Of a stretch of 64,000 nucleotides of DNA, positions 7,966-60,538 are shown piece by piece. The first letter of the stretch is position 1. Every line of letters starts with the position of its first letter. The notes beneath the pieces are model-generated. The model saw only the letters and a program-made list of their open reading frames with translations. It was not told the origin of the DNA and did no database searches. The translations under genes were made by a program, and so were the position numbers. This DNA is from Alphaproteobacteria bacterium (GTDB taxonomy: Bacteria > Pseudomonadota > Alphaproteobacteria > UBA828): the NCBI GenBank assembly GCA_965221125.1, contig CBDCRW010000003.1:64001-128000 (forward strand), in the 5' to 3' direction.

Positions 7966-8457
7966 CTACTCGGGAGACCAAGGCGCGATCCGGGTCTCCC
8001 AGGCCGCGCTGTCGGCCGGGCTGAAGAGCTTCAGCGTGAGGTCGATGCGCGCGAACTTCCAGGCGCCGTCCTCCTTGCGCAACCGGGAGTCGTACCAGCC
8101 GCCGATCCAGGTGTCCCTCGTCGGCCCCCCACCCTCGGGCGTCACCTTGCCCAGCTCCCACAGGTAGTGGTTCGACGTGGCACTGCGCCCGTCCGCCGCC
8201 ACCTCGACGATGGGCTGGGTCATGTAGTGGATGGCCCAGGGCATGAAGGTGGTGCAGTTGGGGCGGATGTCGCGGACGATCCCCGCCCGCGTCTCCCAAT
8301 GGCCGATGCCTTCGCAGTGCCACACCGCATCCTCGGTGAAGAGCGGCGCGACGAGCGCGGGGTCGCCGTTGTGGTCCACGGCCTTGGCGTAGCGGGCGAT
8401 GAGCTGCTGGATCGCCTCGATATCCTCGAGACGCCGGAGCCGCGCTTCGATGCTCAC
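7966..8457 (-). CDS. NTF2/SnoaL-like protein (BaiE/LinA-like), paralogue 2
   Basis: GTG start at 8457; RLEDIEAIQQLIARY..AVD, FTEDAVW, HY, WKF. Confidence 0.88.
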   Translation of the reverse strand: MSIEARLRRLEDIEAIQQLIARYAKAVDHNGDPALVAPLFTEDAVWHCEGIGHWETRAGIVRDIRPNCTTFMPWAIHYMTQPIVEVAADGRSATSNHYLWELGKVTPEGGGPTRDTWIGGWYDSRLRKEDGAWKFARIDLTLKLFSPADSAAWETRIAPWSPE

Positions 8458-8485
8458 GGCCGCCTCCCTTCGTTGCGCCGGCGCG

Positions 8486-8974
8486 CTACCCCTTCCAGGG
8501 CGGGATCGGCGTCTCCCACGAGGTCGCATCGGCGGGGCTGAGCAGCTTCAGGATCAGCTCGATGTGGGTGAACTTCCAGTCGCCGCCTTCCTTGCGGAAG
8601 GTGGATTCGTACCAGCCGCCGATCCAGGTATCCTGGTCCGGGCTTCCATCTTCCTGCACCGCCTTGGCGAGCTCCCACAGGTAGTATTCGCCGGTAGCCG
8701 TCTGACCGTCGTCCGCGATCTCGATGATCGGCTGGGTGAAGTAGTGCAGCGCCCACGAGAGCTGCTTGGTGGAGACCTCGCGCAGGCCCGAGACGATGGC
8801 GTCGCGGCTCTCGTAACGCCCGATCCCCTCGCAGTTCCAGACCGCGTCCTCGGTGAAGCACGGCGCCATCTTCTCCGGGTCGGCGTTGTTGTCCGCCGCC
8901 GTCATGTAGCGGGCGATGAGCTGCTTGATGGCTTCGATATCCTCAAGGCGCTGAAGGCGTTGCTCCACGGACAT
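8486..8974 (-). CDS. NTF2/SnoaL-like protein (BaiE/LinA-like), paralogue 1
   Basis: RLEDIEAIKQLIARY...AD, FTEDAVW, LHYFTQP, GDWKF. Confidence 0.9.
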   Translation of the reverse strand: MSVEQRLQRLEDIEAIKQLIARYMTAADNNADPEKMAPCFTEDAVWNCEGIGRYESRDAIVSGLREVSTKQLSWALHYFTQPIIEIADDGQTATGEYYLWELAKAVQEDGSPDQDTWIGGWYESTFRKEGGDWKFTHIELILKLLSPADATSWETPIPPWKG

Positions 8975-9009
8975 GGTCTCTGTTCCCTATGGTTGTTCCA
9001 GGTGTTCGT

Positions 9010-20136: not shown

Positions 20137-21057
20137 CTAGCGCGGCGCGCTTGCGCCATGGGCCGGAACCTTCGGACTCAGTATCTCCGAGCGGGAGAGC
20201 TCCCGGTCCAGCACCTCGACGATGGCGGCTGCCAGCGCCCGGATGGCCCCGGTCGCACCGCCCGGCCTCCAGAAGAGCCCGATGTCGAAGTCGTCGAGCG
20301 CGGGCAGCTCCGCGCAAGGCGGCAGAGCGTGCAGGCTCGGCGGCACGGTGCTCGTCGAGATCGCCGTGAGACCGAGCCCGCTCTCGATCGCGGCCTGGTT
20401 GCCGGCGAGGTTGGAGCTGGAATAGACGATCCTGTAGGGGATGTCGCGCCGCTGCAGCGCGCTCAACACGCGCAGGCGGTACTGGCAGCCGTCCGGGAAC
20501 AGGACCAGGGGCAGCGGGCGTCGCGTCCGCAGATCGTGGTCCTGGCTACCGACCCAGGCCATAGGCTCGCGCCACTGATCGGTCATGTGCGCGGTGGATC
20601 GGTCGTCGTGCACCGCGAGGACGATGTCGAACTCGTTCTGGATCAGCCCGCTAATGAGGTCGCGGCTCAGCTCGCAGGTCACGTCGAGCGCGACATCCGG
20701 GTGGGACTCGGAGAACCGGCCAAGGAGCTGCGGCAGGAACGAGAGCGCGTAGTCGCTGGGTATGCCGACACGGATCGTCCCGGTCAGGATGCCGCCGTCC
20801 AGCCGCCCGACGCACTCGTCGTTCAGCGCCACGATCTGCTTGGCGTATTCGAGGACGATCTCGCCCTGCGGCGTCAGCCCGAAGGCCTTGCCGGAATTGG
20901 TGAGGATCGGCGAGCCGACGACGTGCTGAAGGCGCTGCATCTGCAGGCTCACAGCCGACTGCGAGCGGCCGATTTCCTCCCCCGTCCGCGAGAAGCTCTG
21001 CGTTCGGGCCAGCACCAGCAGGGTCCGCAAGAGGTCGATCGGGAGGATGCGTTCCAT
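20137..21057 (-). CDS. LysR family transcriptional regulator
   Basis: DLLRT...SFSRTGEEIGRSQSAVSLQMQRL; IRVGIPSDY. Confidence 0.93.
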   Translation of the reverse strand: MERILPIDLLRTLLVLARTQSFSRTGEEIGRSQSAVSLQMQRLQHVVGSPILTNSGKAFGLTPQGEIVLEYAKQIVALNDECVGRLDGGILTGTIRVGIPSDYALSFLPQLLGRFSESHPDVALDVTCELSRDLISGLIQNEFDIVLAVHDDRSTAHMTDQWREPMAWVGSQDHDLRTRRPLPLVLFPDGCQYRLRVLSALQRRDIPYRIVYSSSNLAGNQAAIESGLGLTAISTSTVPPSLHALPPCAELPALDDFDIGLFWRPGGATGAIRALAAAIVEVLDRELSRSEILSPKVPAHGASAPR

Positions 21058-21103
21058 TCTGTCGTCCCTGCCCTCCTTCGTTCGCGACTCGCACGGCGAC
21101 GAT

Positions 21104-21118
21104 ATGAGACTTTCTCAT
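21104..21118. promoter_or_regulatory. LysR-type binding site (T-N11-A dyad)
   Basis: ATGAGActtTCTCAT in an AT-rich divergent promoter region. Confidence 0.65.
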
Positions 21119-21237
21119 GAAAGTATATTTACTATTCATGAAGATAATCAATCGCTTGGTGTTATTGGTGGCCGGTGTCCCCTCGCAACCGGACGGTATC
21201 CATTGCCGACGGTGACGCACACGGAGACGAAGGCGCC

Positions 21238-22476
21238 GTGACCGACCCGGAAAGGATCGCCACACAAAAGCTCTGGAGCGTCGGCGAGATGCAGCGCCGC
21301 CTCGGCAATCTGCACGCGCTGATGGACGAGCGCTCGCTCGACGCCGTGATCCTGACGAGCCTGCACAACGTCCTCTACTACACCGGCTTCTTCTGTCCGC
21401 CCTTCGGCCGGCTGCACTCCGCGGTCATCCCGAGGAAGGGCGAGCCCGCGCTGATCGTCTCGCTGATTGAGGACGAGCGCCCCCAACACTGCTGCTACTA
21501 CGAGGACATCCGCCCGTTCCACGACTGGGAGATGAGCCCGCTTGAGAACAGCGTGCGGCTCTTCGGCGAGGTGCTGCACGACAACGGCATCCGAAGCGGC
21601 CGCCTCGGCTACGAGGAGGATTCCGTGTCGGTCGGCTTCAAGGCGCTGATCGACAGCGCGCTCGGCGGCTTCGCGTTCGCCGACGTGGCCTACGACACCA
21701 TGCGCCAGCGCCTGGTCAAGTCGGAGGAGGAGATCGCCCTCATCCGTCAGGGCGTCGAGATCTGCGAGGTCGGCGGCTACGCCGCTCTGGAGGCTCTGAA
21801 GCCCGGCGTCACCGAGATCGAGATGGCGCGGGCCGCCAACATCGCCATCGAGAACGAGCTCCGCCGGCGCTTCCCCGACATCGAGGTCGACAACCTCAAC
21901 ATGTGCTGGGTTCAGACCGGCCCCTACCGGAGCCGCGTCGGCCACATCATGAACGCGCACCGGGTCGTGCAGCAGGGCGAGATGATCAGCGTCAATCCCT
22001 ACGCGATCATCGGCGGCTACTACCACGTCCTGGAGCGAAGCCTCTACTGGGGGCATATCCCCGACGACGCGCTCGCGGTCTTCAAGACCAACGTCGAGGC
22101 GCATCACGCCGGGCTCCGGACGCTCCGCGCAGGCATCAGGTGCTCCGACGTCGACAAGGCGGTCAACCCCGTCTACCGGAAGGCGGGCCTGCTGGAGGGG
22201 CGTTCCTTCGGCACCGGCCACTCGGTCGGGATCATGTCGATCTGGTACGGACGCGAGGAAGGGGGCGAACTGCGCCAGTACAACGACACCGTGCTGGAAG
22301 AGAACATGGTCGTGACCATGGAGCCGATGGTGAACGTGGACGGCCTCGGCGGCTTCCGCCATCACGACATCTGCCGCATCACCGCCGACGGTATCGAGAA
22401 CCTCAACACCTTCCCGCGCGGCGTCCTGCTGGCCGGCGACGACGGGAGCCTGGAAGAGCTTTGGCTGCCCGCCTGA
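21238..22476 (+). CDS. Creatinase-like amidinohydrolase (M24 fold)
   Basis: LTSLHNVLY, FGR, GYYHVLER, GHSVG, YGREEGGELR, TMEP; GTG start with GGAG upstream. Confidence 0.82.
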   Translation: MTDPERIATQKLWSVGEMQRRLGNLHALMDERSLDAVILTSLHNVLYYTGFFCPPFGRLHSAVIPRKGEPALIVSLIEDERPQHCCYYEDIRPFHDWEMSPLENSVRLFGEVLHDNGIRSGRLGYEEDSVSVGFKALIDSALGGFAFADVAYDTMRQRLVKSEEEIALIRQGVEICEVGGYAALEALKPGVTEIEMARAANIAIENELRRRFPDIEVDNLNMCWVQTGPYRSRVGHIMNAHRVVQQGEMISVNPYAIIGGYYHVLERSLYWGHIPDDALAVFKTNVEAHHAGLRTLRAGIRCSDVDKAVNPVYRKAGLLEGRSFGTGHSVGIMSIWYGREEGGELRQYNDTVLEENMVVTMEPMVNVDGLGGFRHHDICRITADGIENLNTFPRGVLLAGDDGSLEELWLPA

Positions 22477-22510
22477 ACAGGGCCATCGGCCCGGCGCACC
22501 GAGCGGTGCG

Positions 22511-24571
22511 ATGACCGCCCGGCTCGCCGCCGACATCGGCGGCACCTTCACCGACCTCGTGCTGCTGGACCGGGGCGGCGGCGTGCATGTCGCGAAGACG
22601 CTTTCGACGCCGGGCGACTTCAAGGAGGGCGTGCTGGGCGGCGTCGAGCGGATTCTGTCGGATGCCGGGCCGGCGGCGGGGCAGGACATCGCGCTCGCCG
22701 ATGTCGACTACTTCGTGCACGGCGCGACCGTGGTGCTCAATGCCCTGCTGGAGCGGAAGCTGCCGCAGGCCGCGCTGGTCACCACGGCCGGGTTTCGCGA
22801 CGTGCTCGAGATCATGCGCACCAACAACCCGCGCATGTACGACCTCAAGTGGATCAAGCCGAAGCCGATCATCCCGCGCCACTTGCGCTTCGAGGTCGGC
22901 GAGCGCGTCCGCCACACCGGCGAGGTGCTGCGCCCGCTGGACGAGGCGGAGACTCGCGAGGTGGCGCTTCGGATCAAGGCGCGCGGCATCCGCTCGGTGG
23001 CGCTCTGCTTCCTCCACGCCTACGCCAACCCCGACCACGAGCGCCGCGCCCGCGAGATCATCCTGGAGGAGCACCCGAAGGCGCACGTCACGGTCTCCTC
23101 CGACGTGGCCAGCGAGCTGAGGGAGTTCGAGCGCACGTCGACGGTGGCGATCAACGCCAGCACCATCCCCATCATCTCGGCCTATCTCGACGGCTTGTCG
23201 CAGGCGCTGAGCGAGCGCGGCCTGGAGCGCGAGCTCTTCGTGATGCAGTCGAACGGCGGCGTCATCACCAGCCGCACCGCCCGATCGCTGCCGGTCCGCA
23301 CCGTGATGTCGGGGCCGGCCGGCGGCGTCGTCGGCGCCCAGTTCATCGCGAACCGCATGGGCTTGCGCGACGTGGCGACCATCGACATCGGCGGCACCAG
23401 CAGCGACATGGGCGTGATCGCCGACGGCCTCGCGCGGACGGTCGACCAGAGCGCCGTCGAGGGCTGGCCGATCATGGCGCCGACCATCGAAATCCTGGCC
23501 ATCGGCGCCGGCGGCGGCAGCATCGCCTGGGTCGACGCCGGCGGCGCGCTGCGCGTGGGGCCGCAGAGCGCCGGCGCCCGGCCCGGCCCCGCGTGCTACG
23601 GCCTCGGCGGGGCGGAGCCCACCGTCTCCGACGCCTGCGTCGCGCTCAACCGGCTGAACCCGGACTATTTTCTCGCGGGCGAAATGACGCTCGACCGCGA
23701 TGCCGCCGAGCGCGCCATCGGCGAGCACATCGCCGGGCCGCTCGGGATGGAGGTCGCGGACGCCGCCGAGGGCATCCTCCGGGTCGTCACCGCCAACATG
23801 AACAAGGCGATCCGCTCGATCCTGATTGCGCGGGGCTTCGACATCCGCAGCTTCACTCTCATGGCGTTCGGCGGCGCGGGCGGCATGGTGGCCGGCGAGC
23901 TGCTCGACATCGGCGACGTGCAGCGCCTCGTCGTGCCCAGCAATCCCGGCGCCGTCTCGGCCATCGGGATGCTCGCCACCGACCTGCGGCACGATCTCGC
24001 GCAGTCCTCCGTCCAGTCCTTCGCGGACGTCGAGTGGAGCGAGATCGGGGGCGCCCTGCAGCAGCTTCGCATTCTCGGCACGGAACGGCTCAAGCGGGAA
24101 GGCGTGGACGGCGCGGCCATGCGCTTCGACGACGCGCTCGACCTGCGCTACGTCGGCCAGGACTACTACCTGCGCGTCTACGTCGATTGCGACGACCTCG
24201 ACGGCGCGCGCATACGCGCCGATTTCGACCGGCTGCACGAGCACACCTACGGCTTCGCCAACCCCGAGTTCGAGGTCGAGATGGTCAACGCGCGGGTCTT
24301 CGCCATCGGCGCGTTCGAGCGACCGCAGCTCCCCGAGATCGCCGCCCGCGTCTCGTCCGACGGGCCGCTCCCGACGAAGGCCCGGCGCCGGGTGTTCTTC
24401 GGCGGCGCGTTCGTCGAGACGGACATCTACGACGTGACTGCGCTCCGCGCCGGCGACGAAATCGAAGGACCCTGCGTCATCGAGGATCCGCGTTCGACGA
24501 TCGTCGTCATGCCGGGCCAGACCGCGGCGGTGGATCGTTTCCGCAACCTCACCATCGAGGCTGCGGCGTGA
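22511..24571 (+). CDS. Hydantoinase/oxoprolinase subunit A (ATP-binding)
   Basis: DIGGTFTD, SGPAGG, DIGGTSSD, IGAGGGS, GPACYG, FGGAG. Confidence 0.93.
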   Translation: MTARLAADIGGTFTDLVLLDRGGGVHVAKTLSTPGDFKEGVLGGVERILSDAGPAAGQDIALADVDYFVHGATVVLNALLERKLPQAALVTTAGFRDVLEIMRTNNPRMYDLKWIKPKPIIPRHLRFEVGERVRHTGEVLRPLDEAETREVALRIKARGIRSVALCFLHAYANPDHERRAREIILEEHPKAHVTVSSDVASELREFERTSTVAINASTIPIISAYLDGLSQALSERGLERELFVMQSNGGVITSRTARSLPVRTVMSGPAGGVVGAQFIANRMGLRDVATIDIGGTSSDMGVIADGLARTVDQSAVEGWPIMAPTIEILAIGAGGGSIAWVDAGGALRVGPQSAGARPGPACYGLGGAEPTVSDACVALNRLNPDYFLAGEMTLDRDAAERAIGEHIAGPLGMEVADAAEGILRVVTANMNKAIRSILIARGFDIRSFTLMAFGGAGGMVAGELLDIGDVQRLVVPSNPGAVSAIGMLATDLRHDLAQSSVQSFADVEWSEIGGALQQLRILGTERLKREGVDGAAMRFDDALDLRYVGQDYYLRVYVDCDDLDGARIRADFDRLHEHTYGFANPEFEVEMVNARVFAIGAFERPQLPEIAARVSSDGPLPTKARRRVFFGGAFVETDIYDVTALRAGDEIEGPCVIEDPRSTIVVMPGQTAAVDRFRNLTIEAAA

Positions 24572-24603
24572 CGGCGCGCGGCCGGCCGGGATAGAGGCAC
24601 AGC

Positions 24604-26427
24604 ATGGCCAAGGCAGTGAGCTTCGCAGCGACGGACCGGGAGGCGGCGGTCGATCCGGTCACGCTGGAAGTCGTCCGTGCCGGCCTGCACTCGATCATCA
24701 GCGAGATGTCGATCACGCTGAACCGGACCTCCTATTCGACCATCCTGCGCGAGATCAACGACTACAGCTGCGTGCTCTTCGACAGCCGGGGCCGGCTGCT
24801 GGCCCAGGCCGAGGGCATCCCGATCTTCAACGGCAGCATGAACTTCGTCGTCGATGCGGTGATGGAGAAGTTCCCGCTCTCCGAAATGCGGCAGGGAGAC
24901 ATCTTCCTCTCCAACGATCCCTACACCGCCGGCGGCACGCACAAGAACGACATCAACGTCGTCATGCCGATCTTCTGGCAGGGCGCGCTGGTGATGCTGG
25001 CGGCGAACAAGGCGCACCACCTCGATATCGGCGGCAAGGACCCCGGCAGCTGGTCGGCGGACGCGCGCAACACGTACCAGGAGGGCCTTTGCCTTCCTCC
25101 GTTGCAGCTCGCGCGCGGCGGCACGATGAACGAGGAGGTCATCGAGATCCTGATGGCCAACCTGCGCACGCCGACACTTTCCCGCGGCGATTTCTCGGCC
25201 CAGATCGCGGCCCTCAAGACGGCAGAACTGCGCACCCACGAGTGGCTGGAGAAGAACGGCGCAGACGTACTGACGCAGTCGGTCGACGCGTTGCTCGACC
25301 ACGGCGAGCGCGTCGTCCGCGCGGCGATCGAGCGGATTCCCGACGGCGTCTACAGGGCATCGGGCTTCGCCGACGGCGACGGCGTCACAGACGAGCCGAT
25401 CCCCATCGCCGTGACCGTCACGGTGGACGGCGGCGACATCCACATCGACTACACCGGCAGCGGCGCCCAGCGCGAGGGCTCGGCGGGGAACGCCCACTGG
25501 GTCGTGACCGTCTCCATGACGCGCCAGGCGATGATGTTCTTCACCGACACCGCGCTCGGCGGCAACGAGGGCTCGTACCGGCCGATCCACGTCTCGGCGC
25601 CCGCCGGCTGCGTCTTCAACCCCGAGTACCCCGCGCCGGTGACGACCGGCATGGGGAACATGGGCACGCGGCTGATCGAGCTGATCTTCCAGGCGCTGGC
25701 CGAGGTCATTCCCGAAGAGGTGATCGGCGGCACCTTCGGCTGCTTCAGCTGCATGACACTGGGCGGCAAGGACCCGGAGAGCGACGGCGAGTTCGTGCAC
25801 TTCGAGTGCTACTCCGGCGGCTGGGGCGGGCGCCACCACGCGGACGGCAACAGCGCCACCGTCTCGCTCGGCAGCGGCGATGCCTACAACATCCCCGTGG
25901 AGGTGATGGAGACCACCACGCCGATCCTGCTCTGCGAGAAGTTCGCGCTGCAGGAGCGCTCAGCCGGCGCCGGCCGGCATCGCGGCGGCTTCGGCACCGA
26001 GATCGACTACCGGATGATGGGCGAGGCCGAGCTCGCCATCGCCTTGGATCGCGAGACCTTCAAGCCCTACGGCCTCTTCGGCGGGCTGGAGGGGCAGGGC
26101 AGCGAGCTGCTGGTCGAGCCCGGCACGCCTTCGGAAGCGCGCCACGTCCGCGCGAGCGGCGTGAAGGTGGCGGAAGGCGCGCTCGTCCGCCACCGGACGG
26201 CAGGCGGGGGCGGCTATGGCCCGCCCATCGAGCGCGATCCGGCGCTCGTCGCCGAGGACTGCCTGAACGGACTGATCACGCTGAACGACGCCCGCGACCT
26301 CTATGGCGTGGCGATCGACCCCGAGACGCTTGAGGCGAACGGCGACGCCACGGCGGCGCTGCGGAAGGCCCGGCGAGGACCCGAGGACTCTTCACCACCG
26401 GCGCCCGGAAACGACCGGACGCGGTGA
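24604..26427 (+). CDS. Hydantoinase B/oxoprolinase family subunit
   Basis: DPVTLEV, NDPY.AGGTHKND, HHLDIGG, YQEG, PVEVME, GGGGYG. Confidence 0.93.
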   Translation: MAKAVSFAATDREAAVDPVTLEVVRAGLHSIISEMSITLNRTSYSTILREINDYSCVLFDSRGRLLAQAEGIPIFNGSMNFVVDAVMEKFPLSEMRQGDIFLSNDPYTAGGTHKNDINVVMPIFWQGALVMLAANKAHHLDIGGKDPGSWSADARNTYQEGLCLPPLQLARGGTMNEEVIEILMANLRTPTLSRGDFSAQIAALKTAELRTHEWLEKNGADVLTQSVDALLDHGERVVRAAIERIPDGVYRASGFADGDGVTDEPIPIAVTVTVDGGDIHIDYTGSGAQREGSAGNAHWVVTVSMTRQAMMFFTDTALGGNEGSYRPIHVSAPAGCVFNPEYPAPVTTGMGNMGTRLIELIFQALAEVIPEEVIGGTFGCFSCMTLGGKDPESDGEFVHFECYSGGWGGRHHADGNSATVSLGSGDAYNIPVEVMETTTPILLCEKFALQERSAGAGRHRGGFGTEIDYRMMGEAELAIALDRETFKPYGLFGGLEGQGSELLVEPGTPSEARHVRASGVKVAEGALVRHRTAGGGGYGPPIERDPALVAEDCLNGLITLNDARDLYGVAIDPETLEANGDATAALRKARRGPEDSSPPAPGNDRTR

Positions 26428-26460
26428 GTTGGCGACACGAAGAAGGATGAAAGGGAGGGC

Positions 26461-27564
26461 ATGATCATGTGGAAATGGATTGCTGGTGCCGTTGCGGCCG
26501 TCGCGGTGAGCGTGCTCGCCGTCCCGGGCGCGCAGGCGGCCTTCAAGCTGGATGGAGACCCCAAGATCGCGATGCTCCAGCTCGGCACCGTCAACGACGG
26601 CGGCTGGTCCGAGGCTCTCGAGTACGCGCGGGTCAAGACCGAGGAGGCTCTCGGCGTCGAGATCGCCTACACGGAGAACATCCCGGAGGACAATTCGGAG
26701 ATCCTCAGGGCCATCGACCTCTACGTGAGCCGGGGCCACAACATCATCATCGGCACCTCGTGGGGCTATGGTGACGCCTTTCTCGAGGCGGCCACCAAGT
26801 ACCCCGACGTGGCCTTCGTGAACTGCGCCGGCGAGACCAACAACGCCACGAACCTGGAGAGCTTCTACGCGCGCAGCTACCAAGGCTGGTATCTGGCCGG
26901 GATCGTGGCCGGCCACGTGACGCAGTCCAAGAAGATCGGCGCCATCGGCGGCTATCCGCTCAGCGTGGTGAACTGGGACCTCAACGGCTTCCTGCGCGGC
27001 GCCCAGTCCGTGAATCCCGACATCGAGATGGTCGGCGTCTTCGTCAACACCTGGTACGACCCGGTGAAGGAAACGCAGGCGGCGGAGGCCCTGCTGGAGC
27101 AGGGCGTCGACGTGCTGGGCTCCAACCTGAGCACGCCGGGCCCGCACCTCGCCTTCCAGGACCAGGGCAAGTGGTCGGTCGGCTTCCAGATCGACGTGTC
27201 GGACCAGGCGCCGGACGCGGTGGCGACCTCGATGGTCTACAAGTGGGAGGCCTATCTGATCCCGACCATCTCGGCGATCATCGAAGGCACCTGGGAGCCC
27301 GGCGAATGGGGCTGGTGGGAAGGCATCGACACGGGCCTCTTCGACGTCGACCCCATCGCGTCGTGGGTGCCGGCAGCGGCGGTGGCGGACGTGGACGCGG
27401 CGCGCGCGGCGATGGTCGCGGGCACGCTCGATCCCTTCCAGGGGCCGCTGCATCGGCAGGACGGCACGCTGGAGGTGGCGGAGGGCGAGGTTCTCTCCGA
27501 CGACGGCCTCTGGGGCATGACCTACTTCGTGCAGGGCGCCATCGGCACCATGCCGGCGGAGTAG
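26461..27564 (+). CDS. BMP family ABC transporter substrate-binding protein
   Basis: Signal peptide ending AQA; DGGWS, GTSWGY, YLAGIVAG, WYDP.KE. Confidence 0.9.
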   Translation: MIMWKWIAGAVAAVAVSVLAVPGAQAAFKLDGDPKIAMLQLGTVNDGGWSEALEYARVKTEEALGVEIAYTENIPEDNSEILRAIDLYVSRGHNIIIGTSWGYGDAFLEAATKYPDVAFVNCAGETNNATNLESFYARSYQGWYLAGIVAGHVTQSKKIGAIGGYPLSVVNWDLNGFLRGAQSVNPDIEMVGVFVNTWYDPVKETQAAEALLEQGVDVLGSNLSTPGPHLAFQDQGKWSVGFQIDVSDQAPDAVATSMVYKWEAYLIPTISAIIEGTWEPGEWGWWEGIDTGLFDVDPIASWVPAAAVADVDAARAAMVAGTLDPFQGPLHRQDGTLEVAEGEVLSDDGLWGMTYFVQGAIGTMPAE

Positions 27565-27610
27565 GCCCGACCCGGTAGGTCCCTTCCCCGGACCATGCCA
27601 TTGTAGCGGG

Positions 27611-29110
27611 GTGAGCCGTGCCCTAGAAATCGTCGGCGCAAGCAAGGCGTTCGATGCCCGGCCGGCGCTCAGGCGGGCATCGTTCGCCTGCGACTGGGGC
27701 GAGGTCCACGCGCTCCTCGGGGAGAACGGGGCCGGCAAGTCGACCCTGATGAACGTCGCCTGTGGGCTCTACGCGCCCGACGAAGGCACCATCGCGGTCG
27801 ACGGCGAGCCCGCCACGATCACCGCGCCGGCCGATGCCGCCCGTCTCGGCATCGGGATGGTTCATCAGCACTACAAGCTGGTGCAGCGCTTCACCGTCGC
27901 CGAGAACATCGTCCTCGCCTGCCGAGGCGCACTGGGCGTGCGCCGCCCGCGCGAGGCGGCCGAGGCGGTGGCGGCGAAGGCGGCTGACGTGGGCTTCGAG
28001 ATCGACCCCGGCGCCGTGGTCGGCGAACTCTCCATCGCCGAGCAGCAGCGCGTCGAGATCCTCAAGGTGCTGTTGCTGGGCGCCCGCATCCTCATCCTGG
28101 ACGAGCCCACCTCGGTGCTGACCGACCAGGAGTCGGTCCAGGCGCTCACCTTCATGCGCCGCCTCGCGGAAGACGGCCACGCGGTGGTGCTGATCACCCA
28201 CAAGCTGCGCGAGGTGATCGGCTACGCGTCGCGGGTCACGGTGATGCGCGGCGGCGAGACGGTGCTCGCCGGTGCGGAGACCGCAGGGCTGGATGCCGAG
28301 ACGCTCGCCCGGACCATGGTGGGCGAGGAGAGCGCGGCGCAGGAACGCCGCACCCGGCCGCTGGCTCAGGTGAGGCTCAAGGTCGAGGATCTGAGCGTCC
28401 GCCGGGCCGCCGGCATCGGCGTAGACGGCATCGGCTTCGCCGTGCGCGGCGGCGAGATCTACGGCATCGCCGGTGTCGGCGGCAACGGGCAGCAGGAGCT
28501 GGCCGACGCGCTGACCGGGCTGCGCCCGCCCGCCCGCGGGTCCATCGCCATCGACGGCGCGGAGCTCGCGGGCCGGGACGTGCCGGCCTTCCGCCGCCGG
28601 GGGATGCGCGCCGTGCCCGCCGACCGCTTCCGCACCGGCCTCCTGGCGGAGCTAGCGGTCTACGAGAACCACGGCGTGACGGGCGTGCCGGCCGGCGAGT
28701 ACGGCAGTCCGGCGCTGGTCCGACGCCGCGCCATGCGGGCGGCGGCGGCGCAGGCGATCGAGGCATACAGCATCCACGGCGCGGCACCCGGCACCGCCGC
28801 CCGGCTCCTCTCCGGCGGCAACGCCCAGAAGCTCCTGCTCGCGCGCGAGCTCAGGGGCGGGGCCAGCGTGCTGATCGCCCATTCGCCGACCCGCGGCCTC
28901 GACGTGAGCGCCTGCCGCACGGTCCACGACCTGCTGCAGGGCGCGGCGGACGCGGGCACCGCCTGCGTGCTGATCAGCGAGGACCTGGAGGAGGTGCTGG
29001 CGCTGTCCACCACCATCGCGGTGATCAGCCGGGGCCGCCTGGTCCGCGAGTTCGCCGCAGGCCAGGTGAGCCGCGCCGAGATCGGCCGCCTGATGCTGGG
29101 CCACGCCTGA
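27611..29110 (+). CDS. ABC transporter ATP-binding protein (CUT2/nucleoside type, two domains)
   Basis: GENGAGKST, LILDEPT, LSGGNAQK, PTRGLDV. Confidence 0.93.
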   Translation: MSRALEIVGASKAFDARPALRRASFACDWGEVHALLGENGAGKSTLMNVACGLYAPDEGTIAVDGEPATITAPADAARLGIGMVHQHYKLVQRFTVAENIVLACRGALGVRRPREAAEAVAAKAADVGFEIDPGAVVGELSIAEQQRVEILKVLLLGARILILDEPTSVLTDQESVQALTFMRRLAEDGHAVVLITHKLREVIGYASRVTVMRGGETVLAGAETAGLDAETLARTMVGEESAAQERRTRPLAQVRLKVEDLSVRRAAGIGVDGIGFAVRGGEIYGIAGVGGNGQQELADALTGLRPPARGSIAIDGAELAGRDVPAFRRRGMRAVPADRFRTGLLAELAVYENHGVTGVPAGEYGSPALVRRRAMRAAAAQAIEAYSIHGAAPGTAARLLSGGNAQKLLLARELRGGASVLIAHSPTRGLDVSACRTVHDLLQGAADAGTACVLISEDLEEVLALSTTIAVISRGRLVREFAAGQVSRAEIGRLMLGHA

Positions 29111-30180
29111 TGCTCGGCCCTGTCTATCTCGTACCCCGCCAGCAGGCGCCGCTCTGGCTGCGCGCGGCGACCTTCGTCGGCGGCATCGCGCTGGGCCTGC
29201 TCATCGCCTTCGGCATCCTCATTGCCTACGGCGTCGGCGCCGGGGAGATCGTCAACGAGTTCATCGTCTACGTGTTCCTCGACCTGAATGGCCTCGCCCA
29301 GGTGGTGACCGCCTCGACGCCGCTGGTCCTCGTCGGCCTGGCGTCGGCGGTGGCGCTCAAGCTCCGCTTCTGGAACATCGGCGTCGAGGGTCAGATGTGG
29401 CTCGGCTGCATTGCCGCGACCGGCGTTGCCATCTTCGACATCGGCCCGGAGGCCGCGCGCCTGCCGCTCATGTTCGTCGCCGCCGCCGTCGCCGGCGCCT
29501 GCTGGATCGGCATTCCCGCCGTTCTCAAGCTCCGCTTCCGGGTCAACGAGATCATCACCACGCTGCTGCTCACCTACGTCGCCTACCAGCTGGTGCAGCA
29601 CCTCCTCTTCGGGCCCTGGCACGATCCGGGCAGCGCCTTTCCCAACTCGCGGCACTACGACGAAGGGGCTGAGCGGCTGGCCCGGCTCGGCTGGGGTTCG
29701 TCGCACACCGGCATCTGGATCGCGCTCGGGGCGGGCGTCCTGCTCTGGTTCGTGATGACCCGCTCTCGGATCGGCTTCTACATGGACGCCATCGGCGCCA
29801 ACGCGGACGCGGCGCGGGCGGCGGGCGTCCCGGTCGTGCTCACGACGGCGCTGGCCGCGGTCATGTCCGGCGGGCTCGCGGGTGCAGCGGGCGCCAGCCT
29901 CGCCGCCGGGCAGGAATACCGCATGACCCTCTTCATCGCCGGCGGCTACACCTTCAGCGGCATCGTCATCGCCTTCATCGGGCGCTTCCGGCCGATCCCC
30001 GTCATCGTCACGGCGTTCGTGGTCGGCGGCGTCTACACGGCGGGCGACACGCTCAAGGTCTTCTATCAACTGCCTGCCGCGATCACGACGCTGATCGAGG
30101 CGGTCATTCTTCTCACCTTCGTCACGGTCGAGTTCTTCAGCCGCTACCACGTCACCTTCGGACTGAGGGAGCGCGCCTGA
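29110..30180 (+). CDS. ABC transporter permease (nucleoside type)
   Basis: WNIGVEGQ, NEIITTLLL; coupled to the ATPase. Confidence 0.92.
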   Translation: MLGPVYLVPRQQAPLWLRAATFVGGIALGLLIAFGILIAYGVGAGEIVNEFIVYVFLDLNGLAQVVTASTPLVLVGLASAVALKLRFWNIGVEGQMWLGCIAATGVAIFDIGPEAARLPLMFVAAAVAGACWIGIPAVLKLRFRVNEIITTLLLTYVAYQLVQHLLFGPWHDPGSAFPNSRHYDEGAERLARLGWGSSHTGIWIALGAGVLLWFVMTRSRIGFYMDAIGANADAARAAGVPVVLTTALAAVMSGGLAGAAGASLAAGQEYRMTLFIAGGYTFSGIVIAFIGRFRPIPVIVTAFVVGGVYTAGDTLKVFYQLPAAITTLIEAVILLTFVTVEFFSRYHVTFGLRERA

Positions 30181-31109
30181 TGGCAGCCGACTTCGTCCAG
30201 AACTGGCTCGCCACCACGCCCGGCTTCGCCACGCCCTACCTGCTCGCCGCCCTCGGGCTGATGATCAACGAGCGCGCCGGCGTGCTCAATCTCGGCTGCG
30301 AAGGCATGATGCTGGTGGGCGCGATGACCGGCGCGGTCGTGAGCTTCCACACCGGCCTCGCCGGCGCCGGCGTGCCCGTCGCCATGCTGGCCGGCGCGCT
30401 GGTCGCCCTCGTGTTCGGCATCGCCGTGGTGGTCTTCCGCACCGATCAGGTGCTGACCGGGCTCATCGTCGTCGCTCTCGGCGACGGGCTGACAGGGGTC
30501 GTGGGCCGCCCCTACATGTTCGAGAAGGTGGCGGGATTCCGCGACCTCGACCTGGGCGCACTCAGCGACATTCCCTGGCTGGGCCCTATCCTCTTCCAGC
30601 AGGACATCCTGGTCTATGCCGCCGCGGCGCTGGCCGTGGCCGTCTGGTGGGGCCTCGACAGATCGGACGTGGGGCTCAGGCTCCGCGCCGTCGGCGAGGA
30701 CCCGGCGACCGCCGACATCGCCGGCGTGAACGTCCAGCTCTTCCGCCTCGCCGCCGTGGTGCTGGGCGGCGCGTTCTGCGGGCTCGCGGGCGCCTACCTG
30801 TCGCTCGCTTCCAGCTTCGTCTGGACCGAGCACATGGTCGCCGGCCGCGGCTGGATCGTCATCGCGCTTGTGATCTTTTCGGGCTGGCGGCCGGGGCGCG
30901 CGGTGATCGGCGCGCTGATCTTCGGCGGCGCCGAGGCGCTGATCCCGCGCATTCAGGCGATCGGCCTCGACGTGCCCATCTACATCGTCGGCATGCTGCC
31001 CTACGTGCTGACGCTGGCGGTGCTGATCGTCCCCACGATCCTGCGGGGCGAGCGCTCGCCTGCGCCGAGCGGGCTTCTGCTCAACTACCTGCGGCAGGAT
31101 CGGCGCTGA
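30180..31109 (+). CDS. ABC transporter permease (nucleoside type)
   Basis: ERAGVLNLGCEG, RAVGEDP, GRGWI, LPYVLT. Confidence 0.92.
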   Translation: MAADFVQNWLATTPGFATPYLLAALGLMINERAGVLNLGCEGMMLVGAMTGAVVSFHTGLAGAGVPVAMLAGALVALVFGIAVVVFRTDQVLTGLIVVALGDGLTGVVGRPYMFEKVAGFRDLDLGALSDIPWLGPILFQQDILVYAAAALAVAVWWGLDRSDVGLRLRAVGEDPATADIAGVNVQLFRLAAVVLGGAFCGLAGAYLSLASSFVWTEHMVAGRGWIVIALVIFSGWRPGRAVIGALIFGGAEALIPRIQAIGLDVPIYIVGMLPYVLTLAVLIVPTILRGERSPAPSGLLLNYLRQDRR

Positions 31110-31488: not shown

Positions 31489-32016
31489 TCATATGGGGGT
31501 GATTTGATTCCGATATTTCTCGATTGGGCCGTACCTCTTGATGATGCGCCCAATGTAGTCGGCGGTGAGTTTCCCGCCTCCCGCGCGCGGAACAACCTCT
31601 CGAATAAAATCGACAGCGTCCGCTTTGGTCTTGCCTTCGCTGAAGACAAGCCAAGCGACTAACCGGACGATCCGTTCATCGCGCGTCCGGTTCTCATCTG
31701 GACTACGCCCTCTGCCTCGCTTGGGTCGGGTGACCTCGCCCGTAAAAACGGCAATGGCAAGCTCCAGAATTGCGTCGTGGGCGCTGTCCTCCAGGCCATG
31801 CCCGCGAATATCCTTGCGGGCAACGTCCTCCAATGTGTCGAAGGCCCACGCCCGCTGCCCGTAGGACAGCGCCTCATCGCCCACCATGTACGCCAGTCTT
31901 CGGATTGCTCGCGCCTGCTCTTTGCTATCGCCCGGCCAGTCCAACACGTTGTTCGACGGGCGCGGCAACTCCTCAAAAGCGGAGCGCAGGAATAGCCGGT
32001 TCGTCAAATTATCCAT
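31489..32016 (-). CDS. Hypothetical protein of the integrative element
   Basis: 175 aa ORF overlapping the integrase stop; lower GC; basic PKRGRGRSP then possible HTH. Confidence 0.65.
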   Translation of the reverse strand: MDNLTNRLFLRSAFEELPRPSNNVLDWPGDSKEQARAIRRLAYMVGDEALSYGQRAWAFDTLEDVARKDIRGHGLEDSAHDAILELAIAVFTGEVTRPKRGRGRSPDENRTRDERIVRLVAWLVFSEGKTKADAVDFIREVVPRAGGGKLTADYIGRIIKRYGPIEKYRNQITPI

Positions 32017-33184
32017 GCAACCTCACTATGGCGCCGGTACCGCCGTTTACGAAGTCCGCCCATGCTTGCATGAGAACGCGGCGTCGTTCGAACACGTCGC
32101 TTCGGAAGTAGGCTCCTTCAACGCCACCCACGGTGTGCGCCAGCGCCGCCTCGGCAAGCTCACGCGGCTTGCCCATGTCCGCACACCAGTCTCTGAAACC
32201 TGACCGGAGACCATGCACCACCGTCTTCTCGGCGAGGCCAGTCGTTCGCAAGACCTTGGTGAGGGACATGTCCGACAGGGGACGGTTCGTCGAGCGTGGC
32301 GAGGGAAAGACGAGACCCTGCCCACCGCTCAGCGGGCGCGCCTGTTCCAGCACCTCGAGAGCCGCGTCGCTCAGCGGCACGCGGTGTTCGGCACCACTCT
32401 TCATGCGCGATGCCGGTATGGTCCACGTCGCCGACGCCACGTCTACCTCGCTCCACTCGGCAAGGCGGACCTCGCCGCTGCGGCAGGCGGTCAGCACAAC
32501 GAACTTCAGCGACAGTTTGGCTGCCAGGGATGCCCTTGACGCTTCCACGGTATCGAGCGCCGCGGCGACCTCGCGATAGGGCAGAGCCCGAAAGTGTGCC
32601 TTCACGGCCGGCTGGCGCGGCAACGCGCCGTCGATGGCCTCGCCCGCGACGTTGGTCTGGACGTGCCCATGAGCTTCAGCCCAACGGAGGGTCGCGCGGA
32701 CTCGCTGGCGCACCTTGCGACCGACCTCCGGCTTGCTGGTCCAAATCTGAGTCAGCACCCGCAGCACGTCTTCGCGCCCGATGCGGTCAACCGCCATGTC
32801 GCCGATGACCGGGAATGCGTGCCGCTCCAATTGCTGAAGCCAGTTCGTCGTGACCTTGGCGTTGCGCCAACGCGGCCGATTCGCCTCGAACGTCGCCTCG
32901 GCCGCCGCCCGAAAGGTCGGCACCCGGGCCTTGCGCTTCGCCGCCAGCGGGTCGCCTCCCCGCCGTGCCAGCCGTCGGTTCTCGAATGCCGCCTCGCGTG
33001 CTTCGGTGAGTGTCGTGAGCGGCCAGCCGCCCAACCCAATGTCGCGGCGCTTGCCGTCGATGGCGAGCCGCTGAATCCACGATTTCGAACCACCGCGCGC
33101 CACGCGCAGAAAAAGTGTGCCGCCGTCGCCGTACATGCCGGGCTTGGTGAGCACCCGAATCTTCGCGACTGTCAGCTTCGCCAT
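32009..33184 (-). CDS. Tyrosine integrase (P4-like, Arm-binding domain)
   Basis: KPGMYGDGGTLFLRV, TACRSGE, MK, HGLRSGFRDW, LAH, AY..SD..ERRR.LMQAW; ATG 33184. Confidence 0.94.
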   Translation of the reverse strand: MAKLTVAKIRVLTKPGMYGDGGTLFLRVARGGSKSWIQRLAIDGKRRDIGLGGWPLTTLTEAREAAFENRRLARRGGDPLAAKRKARVPTFRAAAEATFEANRPRWRNAKVTTNWLQQLERHAFPVIGDMAVDRIGREDVLRVLTQIWTSKPEVGRKVRQRVRATLRWAEAHGHVQTNVAGEAIDGALPRQPAVKAHFRALPYREVAAALDTVEASRASLAAKLSLKFVVLTACRSGEVRLAEWSEVDVASATWTIPASRMKSGAEHRVPLSDAALEVLEQARPLSGGQGLVFPSPRSTNRPLSDMSLTKVLRTTGLAEKTVVHGLRSGFRDWCADMGKPRELAEAALAHTVGGVEGAYFRSDVFERRRVLMQAWADFVNGGTGAIVRLHG

Positions 33185-33369
33185 GCCTCGAATTCCCACC
33201 CGGATTGGACGCCGGGCAAGAGGGATTTGCCCCCACCCCACGTCTTACCCAACGTGATGCGTAGGACAGCGCGAGAATCGCACGGAATGCTCAAGCACAG
33301 GATATCGGCCAATTGACTGATTTATAATGGATATTGGAATATACGGGAACGTATGAAACTGGCAGGCGG

Positions 33370-33442
33370 TGCCGCAGGAGAGATTCGAACTCCCGACCCA
33401 TGCATTACGAATGCATTGCTCTACCGACTGAGCTACTGCGGC
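33370..33442 (-). tRNA. tRNA-Thr(CGT)
   Basis: GCCGCAG/CTGCGGC acceptor stem, ATGCA-TTCGTAA-TGCAT anticodon arm, TTCGAAT T-loop; followed by CCG, not CCA. Confidence 0.95.
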
Positions 33443-42509: not shown

Positions 42510-42596
42510 GCGGCTGTGGCGGAACTGGTAGACGCGCAGCGTTGAGGGCGCTGTGGGGGCGACCCCGTGGAGGTTCGAGTCCTCTCAGCCGCACCA
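42510..42596 (+). tRNA. tRNA-Leu(GAG)
   Basis: 87 nt, long variable arm, CAGCG-TTGAGGG-CGCTG, CCA end; TTGACA at 42447. Confidence 0.96.
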
Positions 42597-42605
42597 TCTG
42601 GCCTG

Positions 42606-42692
<87 letters not shown>

Positions 42693-58808: not shown

Positions 58809-60536
58809 CTACTCCGCCGCTTCCGCCGCGCCGTCGAGGCCGTAGTTCTCCCGCGCCGAGTCGGCTGAGATGTAGCCCTCGGCGACGTCTTCGATCACCT
58901 GCTCGCGCGGGCGCTCGCGCGGGTCGCCCCAGCCGCCGCCGCCGGGAGTCTGGAAGCGGATCGAATCGCCCGGCCGGATGCGGACGTTGCTCCACTTGCT
59001 GGGGCTGGCCTTGCCGAAGGCCTCGTCGATCATGTGCCAGCTGGTGGTGTTGGCCTGCTGGTGCCACGTGCCGGCGAGCCCGCCGGGCTGGCCGCCGTAC
59101 AGCCCCCACGGCCGGTTGCGGTGGCGATCCGACATCTGGCTGCCCATGATCTCGGTGTCCAGGCTCTTGAGCGTGCGCTGCGTGCTGAGACCGCCGCGGT
59201 TCAGGCCGGCGCCGCCGGAATCCTGCACCAGGATGTAGGACTCGGTGCGGAAGGGGAAGCGGGTCTCGAACACCTCCACCGGCACCACGCGGCAGTTGCC
59301 GTTGATGGAATCGGTGGCGTCGTTGCCGTCCGCGAAGCTCCGCCCGCCCCAGCCCGAAAGCTCGATGGCGTAGCAGACGAAGGCCTCACCGCTCTCCTCG
59401 TCGGTGCCGCCGAAGACGAAGTTGGTGTGCGTCGCCCCCTCGGCCGCCATGGTGCGGTCGGGGATCGCCGGCGCGAGCGCGCCGATGACCGCGCCCGCGA
59501 TCTTGCAGTGGGTCTCGGTGTTGCCGCCGACCTCGGGCCCCGGATAGTCGACGTTGAGCAGGGTGCCGGGCGGCGAGACCACGCGGATCGGGCGGAAGCA
59601 GCCCGAGTTCTTCGGAATCGTCTCGTCGGTGACCTGCAGGATGCCGTTGTAGGCGGCAGAATAGGAGACGCCGAGGGTGGCGTTGATCGGCCCCAGCGCC
59701 TGCGGCGAGGTGCCGGAATAGTCGATCACCACCTCGTCGCCCTGGATGTGGACCGCCACCTTGATGTCGTAGGGCTTGCTCTCGATGCCGTCGTCCTCGA
59801 CCTGGTCCTGGAAGCGGTAGACGCCGTCCTCGATGGCGCCGATCTCCGCGCGCATGCGGCTCTCGGAGTAATCCATCAGGTCGAGCACGTTGCGGCGGAA
59901 CTGCCCCTTGCCGTACTTGCGGATCAGCTTGGCCAGCCCGCGCTCGCCCACGTCCACGCCCGCGATGAGCGCGCGCAGGTCGCCGTAGTTGTAGCGGGGG
60001 GTGCGGACGTTCGCGAGGAGCAGCTTCCACACCTCCTCCACGTCCTCGCCTCTGCTCTTGATCTTGACCGGGGGTACGCGGATGCCCTCGTGGAAGATCT
60101 CGGTCGCCTCGCCGGCGAAGGCGCCGGGCACCATGCCGCCGATCTCCTGCAGATGGCCGATGGTCATGGCGAAGCCCATGAGCTCGTCATCGACGAAGAC
60201 CGGCTTGATGAGCGTGTGCTCGGGGCAGTGCAGGCCGCCGCGGTAGGGATCGTTGTGGCAGATCACGTCGCCGGGCTCGAGGGTCTCGAGCGGGATCTCC
60301 TTCACGCAGCTGCGCACCAGCAGCGGCACGCCGCCGATCATCGACGGGCAGTACTCGGCCTGCGCGATCATCTCGCCTTGGGGGCTCGCGAGGGCGCAGG
60401 TGAAGTCCAGCGCCTCGTTGAAGATCGTCGAGTACGACGTCTTCATCAGCACGATGCCCATCTCGCGGCAGACCGCGGTCATGGTGGAATCGATGATCGA
60501 CATGGCGACCATGTCGACGTCGTGCTTCTGGGTCAT
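58809..60536 (-). CDS. Hydantoinase B/oxoprolinase family subunit
   Basis: NDPYRGGLHCPE, GHLQEIGG, FHEG, PVEVFE, GGGGWGDP. Confidence 0.93.
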   Translation of the reverse strand: MTQKHDVDMVAMSIIDSTMTAVCREMGIVLMKTSYSTIFNEALDFTCALASPQGEMIAQAEYCPSMIGGVPLLVRSCVKEIPLETLEPGDVICHNDPYRGGLHCPEHTLIKPVFVDDELMGFAMTIGHLQEIGGMVPGAFAGEATEIFHEGIRVPPVKIKSRGEDVEEVWKLLLANVRTPRYNYGDLRALIAGVDVGERGLAKLIRKYGKGQFRRNVLDLMDYSESRMRAEIGAIEDGVYRFQDQVEDDGIESKPYDIKVAVHIQGDEVVIDYSGTSPQALGPINATLGVSYSAAYNGILQVTDETIPKNSGCFRPIRVVSPPGTLLNVDYPGPEVGGNTETHCKIAGAVIGALAPAIPDRTMAAEGATHTNFVFGGTDEESGEAFVCYAIELSGWGGRSFADGNDATDSINGNCRVVPVEVFETRFPFRTESYILVQDSGGAGLNRGGLSTQRTLKSLDTEIMGSQMSDRHRNRPWGLYGGQPGGLAGTWHQQANTTSWHMIDEAFGKASPSKWSNVRIRPGDSIRFQTPGGGGWGDPRERPREQVIEDVAEGYISADSARENYGLDGAAEAAE

Positions 60537-60538
60537 GA

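Follow-up and report, generated by a model that had tools for sequence, protein, structure and literature searches.

A creatinase-related M24 hydrolase, a HyuA/HyuB pair of the ATP-dependent hydantoinase/lactamase type and a BMP-type ABC importer are encoded by one tight operon, divergent from a LysR-type regulator gene, in the 64,000-nucleotide stretch of an alphaproteobacterial genome analysed here (positions 64,001 to 128,000 of contig CBDCRW010000003.1; G+C ~69%; hereafter the window). What is new is a separate creatinase-related clade that lies in an operon with a single HyuA/HyuB (HyuAB) orthologue group in 19 of 20 loci, with the usual partners absent. The operon probably turns creatinine or a close ring analogue into sarcosine; it would represent a LysR-induced, self-contained system for the uptake and breakdown of a small N-heterocyclic lactam, with sarcosine as the end product. 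The best explanation, which we put forward tentatively, is that creatinine is opened with ATP to creatine, on which the M24 enzyme then acts.

The M24 protein and the conserved gene trio

The operon begins with the M24 gene (21238-22476, plus strand), whose 412-residue product, a candidate amidino- or carbamoyl-acid hydrolase, matches Creatinase_N (PF01321, 5.5e-16) and Peptidase_M24 (PF00557, 1.6e-26). It is followed on the same strand by HyuA, the ATP-binding subunit of an ATP-dependent hydantoinase/lactamase (22511-24571; N, A and C domains all present as PF05378, PF01968 and PF19278), and by HyuB, the second subunit of the same enzyme (24604-26427; PF02538, 3e-164, over model positions 1-519 of 519), so that both family members are complete. 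Spacing within this trio is 32-34 bp, and across all seven plus-strand genes it is 32-46 bp or a 1-bp overlap. The first-pass annotation of this DNA had listed LysR, M24, HyuA, HyuB and a four-gene BMP-type importer, and we found all eight genes where it had placed them. Its observation that the cluster has no creatininase, deaminase or isochorismatase-type amidase was likewise borne out by domain scans of the cluster and its neighbours.

Among solved structures, the M24 protein matched the creatinases best (7YTO, 8.5e-73; 1CHM, 5.3e-67; 1KP0, 1e-65), ahead of prolidases (1.5e-22) and the ectoine hydrolase DoeA (6e-11). It shares with these creatinases (EC 3.5.3.3) the Creatinase_N domain, the pita-bread M24 domain and 38-40% identity over the full length. 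Its best NCBIfam match is ectoine hydrolase, at 108 bits against a cut-off of 575; NCBIfam holds no creatinase model, and the true creatinase of the same genome is likewise unmatched there.

The motifs recognised earlier (FGR, His, YYxxLER, YGRE and MEP, with VGHIM for GAHN) were all seen in the M24 sequence, as FGR at 56-58, H236 in RVGHIMN, YYHVLER at 261-267, WYGRE at 336-340 and MEP at 361-363; the creatinase counterpart of RVGHIMN is DGAHNPV. Residues R58, H236, E266, R339 and E362 show no variation among 25 aligned relatives. They are also kept in 31 sequences of tier 1 and 19 of tier 2 (the tiers are defined below) and in 9 creatinases, the exception being one tier-2 protein with His58. 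From the creatinase alignment, we take H236 to be the catalytic histidine, E266 and E362 to bind the guanidinium group, and R58 and R339 to bind the carboxylate, residue roles reportedly described for creatinase by Coll et al. in 1990. M24 metallopeptidases such as prolidase and aminopeptidase P have five metal ligands, Asp, Asp, His, Glu and Glu. In the M24 protein, N253 and V264, which align with N and A of the creatinases, presumably sit at the two Asp positions, and H375 at that of the last Glu; on this mapping the protein lacks the five-ligand set. It therefore resembles creatinase both in sharing the catalytic His, the two Glu and the two Arg and in lacking the two Asp metal-ligand positions, and its mechanism is probably creatinase-like.

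Database searches returned relatives in three tiers, namely 31 clusters at 67-90% identity (tier 1), ~20 at 45-53% (tier 2) and the canonical creatinases at 35-40%. A quick maximum-likelihood IQ-TREE analysis (42 rows) placed the 15 tier-1 rows and the 9 canonical creatinase rows in separate clades with a support of 100 each. Both emerged from a grade of tier-2 proteins, and the tier-1 clade was equally far from the creatinases and from the tier-2 proteins. Judged from its sequence, the M24 protein is not a creatinase orthologue and belongs to a rare clade of its own. The earlier description of the first enzyme as creatinase-like thus stands in that it is closer to creatinases than to prolidases and keeps the five residues, but it does not extend to orthology. 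Tier 1 is further set apart in that all 31 sequences carry YRSR ahead of the catalytic His, where all 9 creatinases have a gap and then NTD; the loop YRSRVGH of the M24 protein is accordingly one residue longer than the creatinase NTDGAH. The M24 protein also lacks the four-residue IPEG-type insert of creatinases, and tier 1 has H60 for Tyr/Phe and CPP for YCS ahead of the FGR motif.

A true creatinase is encoded in the same genome (G000:C6:11547-12680; 631 bits, E 6.8e-189 to 1CHM), where it adjoins propionyl-CoA carboxylase genes. A further match at 37-41% identity was present in 21 of 41 related genomes, with the copy of this genome alone being compared with solved creatinases. Two genomes that hold the trio, G012 (100% complete) and G026, had no canonical creatinase match at E<=1e-20.

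We found the M24-HyuA-HyuB trio contiguous in 17 of 18 loci from 17 related genomes, in a further genus (locus L216) and in the window. The trio loci cover five genera and two families, with identities of 74-92% for M24, 62-90% for HyuA and 68-91% for HyuB, and their flanks are not common to congeners, so the eight-gene cluster seems to move as a unit. Since the genome (4.58 Mb, 92% complete) has 38 Hydantoinase_B matches above cut-off, along with 31 HyuA-like matches, a single adjacency means little; that the order of the trio is kept across loci indicates that the adjacency is more than chance despite these paralogues. Within the genome itself, no paralogue exceeds 41% identity to the HyuA of the operon or 38% to its HyuB, which makes the orthology of the trio clear. 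The complete eight-gene set was seen in 11 of the 18 related loci and in L216, with L177 being interrupted by a contig end. At L178 (G019:C1:450967-467967), LysR, M24, HyuA, HyuB and the BMP binding protein are kept, and the 7.6 kb past the cluster yielded no gene for an ATPase or a permease. G012, G026, G027 and G028 keep the trio without the BMP importer (M24 74-81%, HyuA 62-70%, HyuB 68-80%). The single exception to contiguity, L175 (= L001, G004:C1:192649-209649), is a decayed second copy, the other copy of G004 being L176. In L175, HyuA breaks off after ~421 residues and continues into the final 293 residues of the ATPase and a part of permease 1, with HyuB and the binding protein absent.

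Tier-1 M24 genes occur in 20 of 49 genomes of the order and in 5 of its 14 genera. A class-wide sample of 400 genomes yielded one further M24 match at E<=1e-100, a tier-2 protein in G126, and no HyuB orthologue at E<=1e-170 among the three candidates scored per genome. For three further tier-1 M24 proteins (P0018, P0026 and P0031; 67-70%), HyuB orthologues of 74-77% lie on contigs of equal size (31110, 147492 and 16762 bp), and the M24 and HyuB genes are presumably on the same contigs. The canonical creatinases differ from tier 1 in this linkage: among 80 loci of at least 12 kb (59 of 139 loci were shorter and were dropped), none had HyuA or HyuB within ~10 kb, and 8 had sarcosine oxidase genes. 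A plasmid collection contained only canonical creatinases (421 records) and distant HyuB proteins (28 records), all below 60% identity, and was set aside. As side observations, both G012 and G027 have a second HyuA (37%) and the start of a HyuB divergent from the tier-1 M24 gene (L186 14285-17001; L187 14305-17000), and the neighbours of the G012 trio include a HyuB fused to an acetone-carboxylase-gamma-like domain, a class-III aminotransferase and another M24 protein.

These data bear on whether the trio serves one pathway at all, since the M24 protein might simply travel beside one HyuAB pair and act as, for example, a peptidase or an ectoine-type hydrolase. With 38 HyuB paralogues, adjacency to such a gene is not rare, and the best NCBIfam match is indeed ectoine hydrolase, although at the low score given above. 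However, the gene order is kept in five genera while the flanks differ, the three genes are closely spaced, canonical creatinases do not stand next to HyuAB in any of the 80 loci, and the putative metal-ligand positions are those of creatinase and unlike those of peptidases. We consider the absence of a common pathway very improbable.

The HyuA/HyuB pair and the proposed pathway

The best solved match of the pair is N-methylhydantoinase 7HK5 (HyuA 459 bits, HyuB 294 bits), with caprolactamase 6YRA second (402 and 233 bits). Caprolactamase is also the best NCBIfam match, although the scores of 529 (HyuA) and 284 (HyuB) lie far under the equivalog cut-off of 1000 for each subunit. The window pair shares the HyuA/HyuB domain set with N-methylhydantoinase (EC 3.5.2.14), whose pathway also ends in sarcosine, but it consists of two separate subunits where the solved enzyme is a fusion of 1288 residues, the identity between them is only moderate, and the window cluster has M24 as the partner, with neither a creatinine deaminase nor an isochorismatase-type amidase. 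Caprolactamase CapAB, 5-oxoprolinase and valerolactamase resemble the pair in hydrolysing a lactam at the expense of ATP with a HyuA/HyuB-type pair, and differ from it in having no amidinohydrolase partner.

The match to N-methylhydantoinase does not single out the window pair because other HyuA paralogues of the genome also score well against that enzyme, at 446 bits for a pair on C3 near a CodA gene and 353 bits for a pair on C7. We tried to identify the genome's real N-methylhydantoinase among the paralogues by this score, and none of the three stood out. The C7 pair (G000:C7:861286-866489; L219 6286-11489) is followed by a 91-residue open reading frame and then by an isochorismatase-family gene weakly like N-carbamoylsarcosine amidase 1NBA (5.7e-13); the best match of its HyuA is acetophenone carboxylase gamma (377 bits). 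A second pair lies in the window itself on the minus strand (58920-62557), with HyuB at ~58920-60515 and HyuA, 41% identical to that of the operon, at ~60563-62557. In P0225 (1030 residues), the first ~425 HyuB residues (61% to the window's HyuB) are joined to an ArgE/DapE-type M20 deacylase; the join could be genuine or an error of gene calling, and as a clue to the pathway it was uninformative, with an M20 part outside the carbamoylase family and a truncated HyuB part. According to a statement in PMC5649159, HyuA/HyuB COGs are enriched in sponge symbionts.

The proposed pathway would run as follows. The BMP-type ABC system would import the ring compound, and HyuA/HyuB would open its lactam bond using ATP, in the manner of N-methylhydantoinase, 5-oxoprolinase and caprolactamase. 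The metal-free M24 enzyme would then cut the C-N bond between the freed N-methylglycine nitrogen and the amidino carbon, with the conserved His as a proton shuttle, the two Arg holding the carboxylate and the two Glu holding the amidino group. With creatinine as the substrate, HyuAB would be an ATP-driven, irreversible 'creatininase' that yields creatine, and the M24 enzyme would give sarcosine and urea for use by the sarcosine oxidase and urease encoded elsewhere. In that case the pair would carry out the same net ring opening as creatininase (PF02633), a metal-dependent, ATP-independent and reversible enzyme of unrelated fold and mechanism.

Sarcosine as the trio's product is suggested most strongly by G027 (L187). 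In this genome the trio is followed, after a 115-bp gap and on the same strand, by soxB (TIGR01373, 731 bits against a cut-off of 529), soxA (TIGR01372, 1456 bits, cut-off 1164), a SoxG-family gene (a PF04268 match, with the TIGR model under its cut-off) and the L-serine ammonia-lyase gene sdaA (TIGR00720, 666 bits, cut-off 345). Sarcosine oxidase and serine ammonia-lyase make up the standard route from sarcosine through glycine and serine to pyruvate. The orthologous sox genes of the genome studied here lie at C6:832415-837557 beside a xanthine/uracil-permease-family gene, and two urease alpha genes are also present in the genome.

Several further findings favour creatinine. All five creatine-holding residues are kept, and the genome encodes a true creatinase but no convincing creatininase: its sole PF02633 gene, on another contig, is not close to the characterised enzymes (7e-11, 46 bits to 1J2T) at a genome completeness of 92%. 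The operons of the window and of G027 contain neither a deaminase nor an amidase, a self-contained design. The nearest solved relatives of the importer's binding protein bind planar N-heterocycles. The two urease alpha genes, the trio in G012 and G026 without a canonical creatinase match and the apparent sponge association described below point the same way.

Other findings weigh against creatinine opening followed by a creatinase step. The conversion of creatinine to creatine is near equilibrium and needs no ATP, and the best solved match of HyuAB is an N-methylhydantoinase and not a creatinine-opener. The M24 protein falls outside the clade of characterised creatinases, and a second creatinase looks redundant because the genome already has a true one. 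Tier-1 proteins have R231 for Asn and R233 for Asp just ahead of the catalytic His, H375 for Glu (FRHHD against YREHD in creatinase), H263 for Thr/Ala and T326 for Tyr; with fewer acidic and more basic groups, this region argues against a cationic guanidinium substrate. Four CodA homologues, 32-46% identical to Escherichia coli CodA, are encoded elsewhere in the genome, and one of them scores above the cut-off of the NCBIfam model for cytosine deaminase (485 against 438). The adjacency to sox genes was seen in only 1 of 20 loci, with an IS1595 transposase nearby. Finally, L099, the sole tier-1 locus outside the order (a 69% M24 fragment at a contig start, with its upstream side lost to the contig end), is followed by unrelated genes without HyuAB.

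Hence the proposal of the first-pass annotation that HyuAB opens creatinine with ATP and feeds an amidinohydrolase finds backing in the conserved coupling, the G027 sox genes and the remoteness of the only creatininase-family gene, but it is weakened by an M24 protein that is no creatinase orthologue, by the active-site changes and by the four CodA-like deaminases. Because of these deaminases, the N-methylhydantoin branch, with the M24 protein replacing the isochorismatase-type N-carbamoylsarcosine amidase, is equally live, doubtful as we consider it in itself. A CodA-like enzyme would deaminate creatinine, or N-methylhydantoin would be imported directly; HyuAB would then give N-carbamoylsarcosine, from which the M24 enzyme would yield sarcosine and carbamate (CO2 and NH3) instead of urea. 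N-methylhydantoinase is the best solved match of both subunits, one of the four CodA homologues exceeds the cytosine deaminase cut-off, and creatine is already covered by the true creatinase. R231, R233 and H375 would suit a neutral ureido carbonyl better than a guanidinium, and the changes near the His fit creatine no better than they would a neutral N-carbamoyl substrate. Binding of carbamoylsarcosine at the creatinase site, with inhibition of the enzyme, was reportedly described by Coll et al. in 1990. Purine (ureide) catabolic clusters surround some of the tier-2 genes, and a sarcosine product fits the G027 sox fusion equally well. On the other hand, both Glu residues that hold the guanidinium are invariant, and we know of no N-carbamoyl hydrolase with a metal-free, Cys-free M24 site. 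The deaminase that this branch needs to start from creatinine is absent from the window and G027 operons, the two paralogous HyuA proteins match N-methylhydantoinase at a similar or lower score, and one tier-2 relative stands beside an agmatinase-family gene, a guanidino context.

Importer, purine context, regulation and surroundings

The four importer genes, all on the plus strand, encode a periplasmic BMP/PnrA-family substrate-binding protein with a signal peptide (26461-27564; PF02608, 2.9e-45), an ABC ATPase with two nucleotide-binding domains (27611-29110; two PF00005 stretches), permease 1 (29110-30180; BPD_transp_2, PF02653, 4.4e-33), whose start shares 1 nt with the ATPase stop, and permease 2 (30180-31109; BPD_transp_2, PF02653, 4.3e-39), the last gene of the operon, whose start overlaps the permease 1 stop. 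In NCBIfam the ATPase comes closest to that of a BMP-type importer, under the cut-off, and the N-terminus of the binding protein reads ...AVPGAQA/AF without a lipobox Cys. With its binding protein, double-domain ATPase and two BPD_transp_2 permeases, the system has the composition of a BMP/PnrA-type importer. The nearest solved proteins to the binding protein are AtzT (6PI5, 2.5e-64) and a Brucella protein (3S99, 5.2e-57), which we take to be binders of purine bases or hydroxyatrazine, that is, planar N-heterocycles; the window system resembles these purine-base importers in the fold family of the binding protein as well as in its ATPase and permeases. Its identity to the type of BMP protein encoded in the genome's C6 purine cluster, which has its own importer and no M24 gene, is only 32%.

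A purine context recurs among the tier-2 M24 genes. Of the 19 tier-2 loci on metagenome contigs (L081-L098 and L100), five (L085, L086, L088, L091 and L097) have the M24 gene flanked by an 8-oxoguanine deaminase gene (646 bits against a cut-off of 532) on one side and a gene for a PuuD-type urate oxidase on the other, with xanthine dehydrogenase genes and a BMP importer alongside. The marine contig L086 (171-13829), for example, carries a xanthine dehydrogenase Mo subunit, XdhC, a small CDA-type deaminase, a BMP ABC importer, 8-oxoguanine deaminase, M24, a glycosyltransferase and PuuD urate oxidase. We know of no role for an M24 enzyme in purine breakdown. At L081, the tier-2 M24 gene stands beside the agmatinase-family gene mentioned above and a polyamine-type binding protein.

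A further reading is that the operon handles another ring that is no sarcosine precursor, and that the acid formed on opening would lose urea or carbamate through the M24 enzyme. Candidates would be hydantoin or a 5-substituted hydantoin, glycocyamidine (giving guanidinoacetate) and purine-derived rings such as allantoin or guanidinohydantoin. The purine/triazine-binding relatives of the binding protein, the five purine-cluster loci and the position of tier 1, as distant from the creatinases as from tier 2, are consistent with such a ring. Allantoicase and ureidoglycolate lyase were not found in the genome either, but the allantoicase negative proves nothing because the control genomes were also unmatched. 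Against another ring, a PuuE allantoinase scores above its cut-off (483 against 425, all AllB-type matches being below theirs), so allantoin would need no HyuAB and is an unlikely substrate; we dropped it as a candidate. Moreover, the C6 purine cluster manages with its own BMP importer and without M24, and the sole informative fusion joins the trio to sarcosine oxidase. A ring other than a sarcosine precursor thus appears unlikely.

The divergent regulator gene (20137-21057, minus strand) encodes HTH_1 (PF00126, 2.8e-13) and LysR_substrate (PF03466, 2.4e-32) domains. A T-N11-A dyad near it, reported in the first pass, proved real: the LysR box ATGAGACTTTCTCAT lies at 21104-21118 within the 180-bp divergent region, with T-N11-A at 21105-21117. 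Aligning the window with 14 orthologous intergenic regions gave the consensus ATGAG-N5-CTCAT. The dyad arms, which were located by script and were not reported by a general repeat scan, are exact in the window and 5 orthologues and differ at one to four arm bases in the other 9, and the 5-nt spacer varies. Arms that are largely kept around a variable spacer are typical of a LysR T-N11-A box, and together with the two domains and the divergent gene they mark the protein as a LysR member. The alignment also contains a conserved AT-rich block 3' of the box. The M24 gene starts with GTG at 21238, 9-10 nt past a GGAG that is conserved in the orthologues, and one promoter-like site was found on the minus strand (21151-21122). 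A terminator scan returned 2 terminator-like sites against 3.1 expected, neither of which was convincing. LysR orthologues of 77-90% identity adjoin the operon in 15 related loci (14 and L216), and G028 has a LysR homologue of 52% identity near the trio.

On the 5' side, the cluster is flanked by a nucleoside hydrolase gene and parts of a second ABC system. On the 3' side lie a short open reading frame of no assigned family, a tyrosine integrase gene (32009-33241; Arm-DNA-bind_3, Phage_int_M and Phage_integrase domains), 900 bp past the operon end, and the adjoining tRNA-Thr(CGT) gene (33368-33442). We considered a genomic island with the integrase and tRNA-Thr as its edge, but no direct repeat of the tRNA-Thr end (an att site) was found in the window or the contig, so the island cannot be delimited. 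Elsewhere in the window, two neighbouring short genes on the minus strand (7966-8986) are tandem duplicates, with repeats of 261 and 193 nt spaced 517 nt apart at 72-73% identity, and two tandem tRNA-Leu genes (GAG and CAG anticodons) with 9 bp between them lie at 42510-42692.

Relation to known creatinine routes

Creatinine and creatine are major nitrogen wastes of animals. Sponge-metagenome-labelled sequencing runs from three studies (P2, P5 and P7) held 0.20-0.38 of the stretch's sampled words, and the lineage appears to be sponge-associated; among the runs listed as sharing words with the stretch, none were RNA runs. According to statements in PMC6742649, sponges make creatine and creatinine and their symbionts degrade both.

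Two routes of creatinine breakdown are established in the accounts given by PMC12623156 and PMC8864220, one by creatininase and creatinase and the other by creatinine deaminase, N-methylhydantoinase and an isochorismatase-type amidase. The first-pass annotation had placed creatinase and hydantoinase in different branches. This was overstated, in that a figure legend of PMC8864220 shows genes for creatinase, heterodimeric hydantoinase and sarcosine oxidase in the same creatine/creatinine degradation clusters of Pseudomonas, Arthrobacter and Roseobacter strains, where double slashes mark non-contiguous genes; the separation does agree with the lack of linkage at all 80 canonical loci. Because of that legend, the co-occurrence of creatinase and hydantoinase as such is not new. 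In the literature searched, supplements excluded, neither the coupling of a creatinase-like gene to HyuAB nor an ATP-dependent opening of creatinine was described. It is conceivable, if less than likely, that this HyuAB would be the first ATP-driven creatinine-opener, which would take the place of creatininase in an irreversible reaction and work with a creatinase paralogue dedicated to it.

Clinical creatinine assays rely on creatinase, creatininase and N-methylhydantoinase, and a new irreversible ring-opener or a new creatinase-related clade could therefore have practical uses. In both leading readings, one of the enzymes would have an activity not described for its family, be it an ATP-dependent creatinine ring-opener or an M24-type N-carbamoylsarcosine hydrolase. 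To our knowledge, almost no HyuA/HyuB gene of this genome's expanded set has a known substrate, and a pair with a defined partner and product would therefore be a foothold in that family. If the creatinine reading is true, sponge-associated Alphaproteobacteria would gain a third, energy-coupled route that converts host creatinine into sarcosine and urea.

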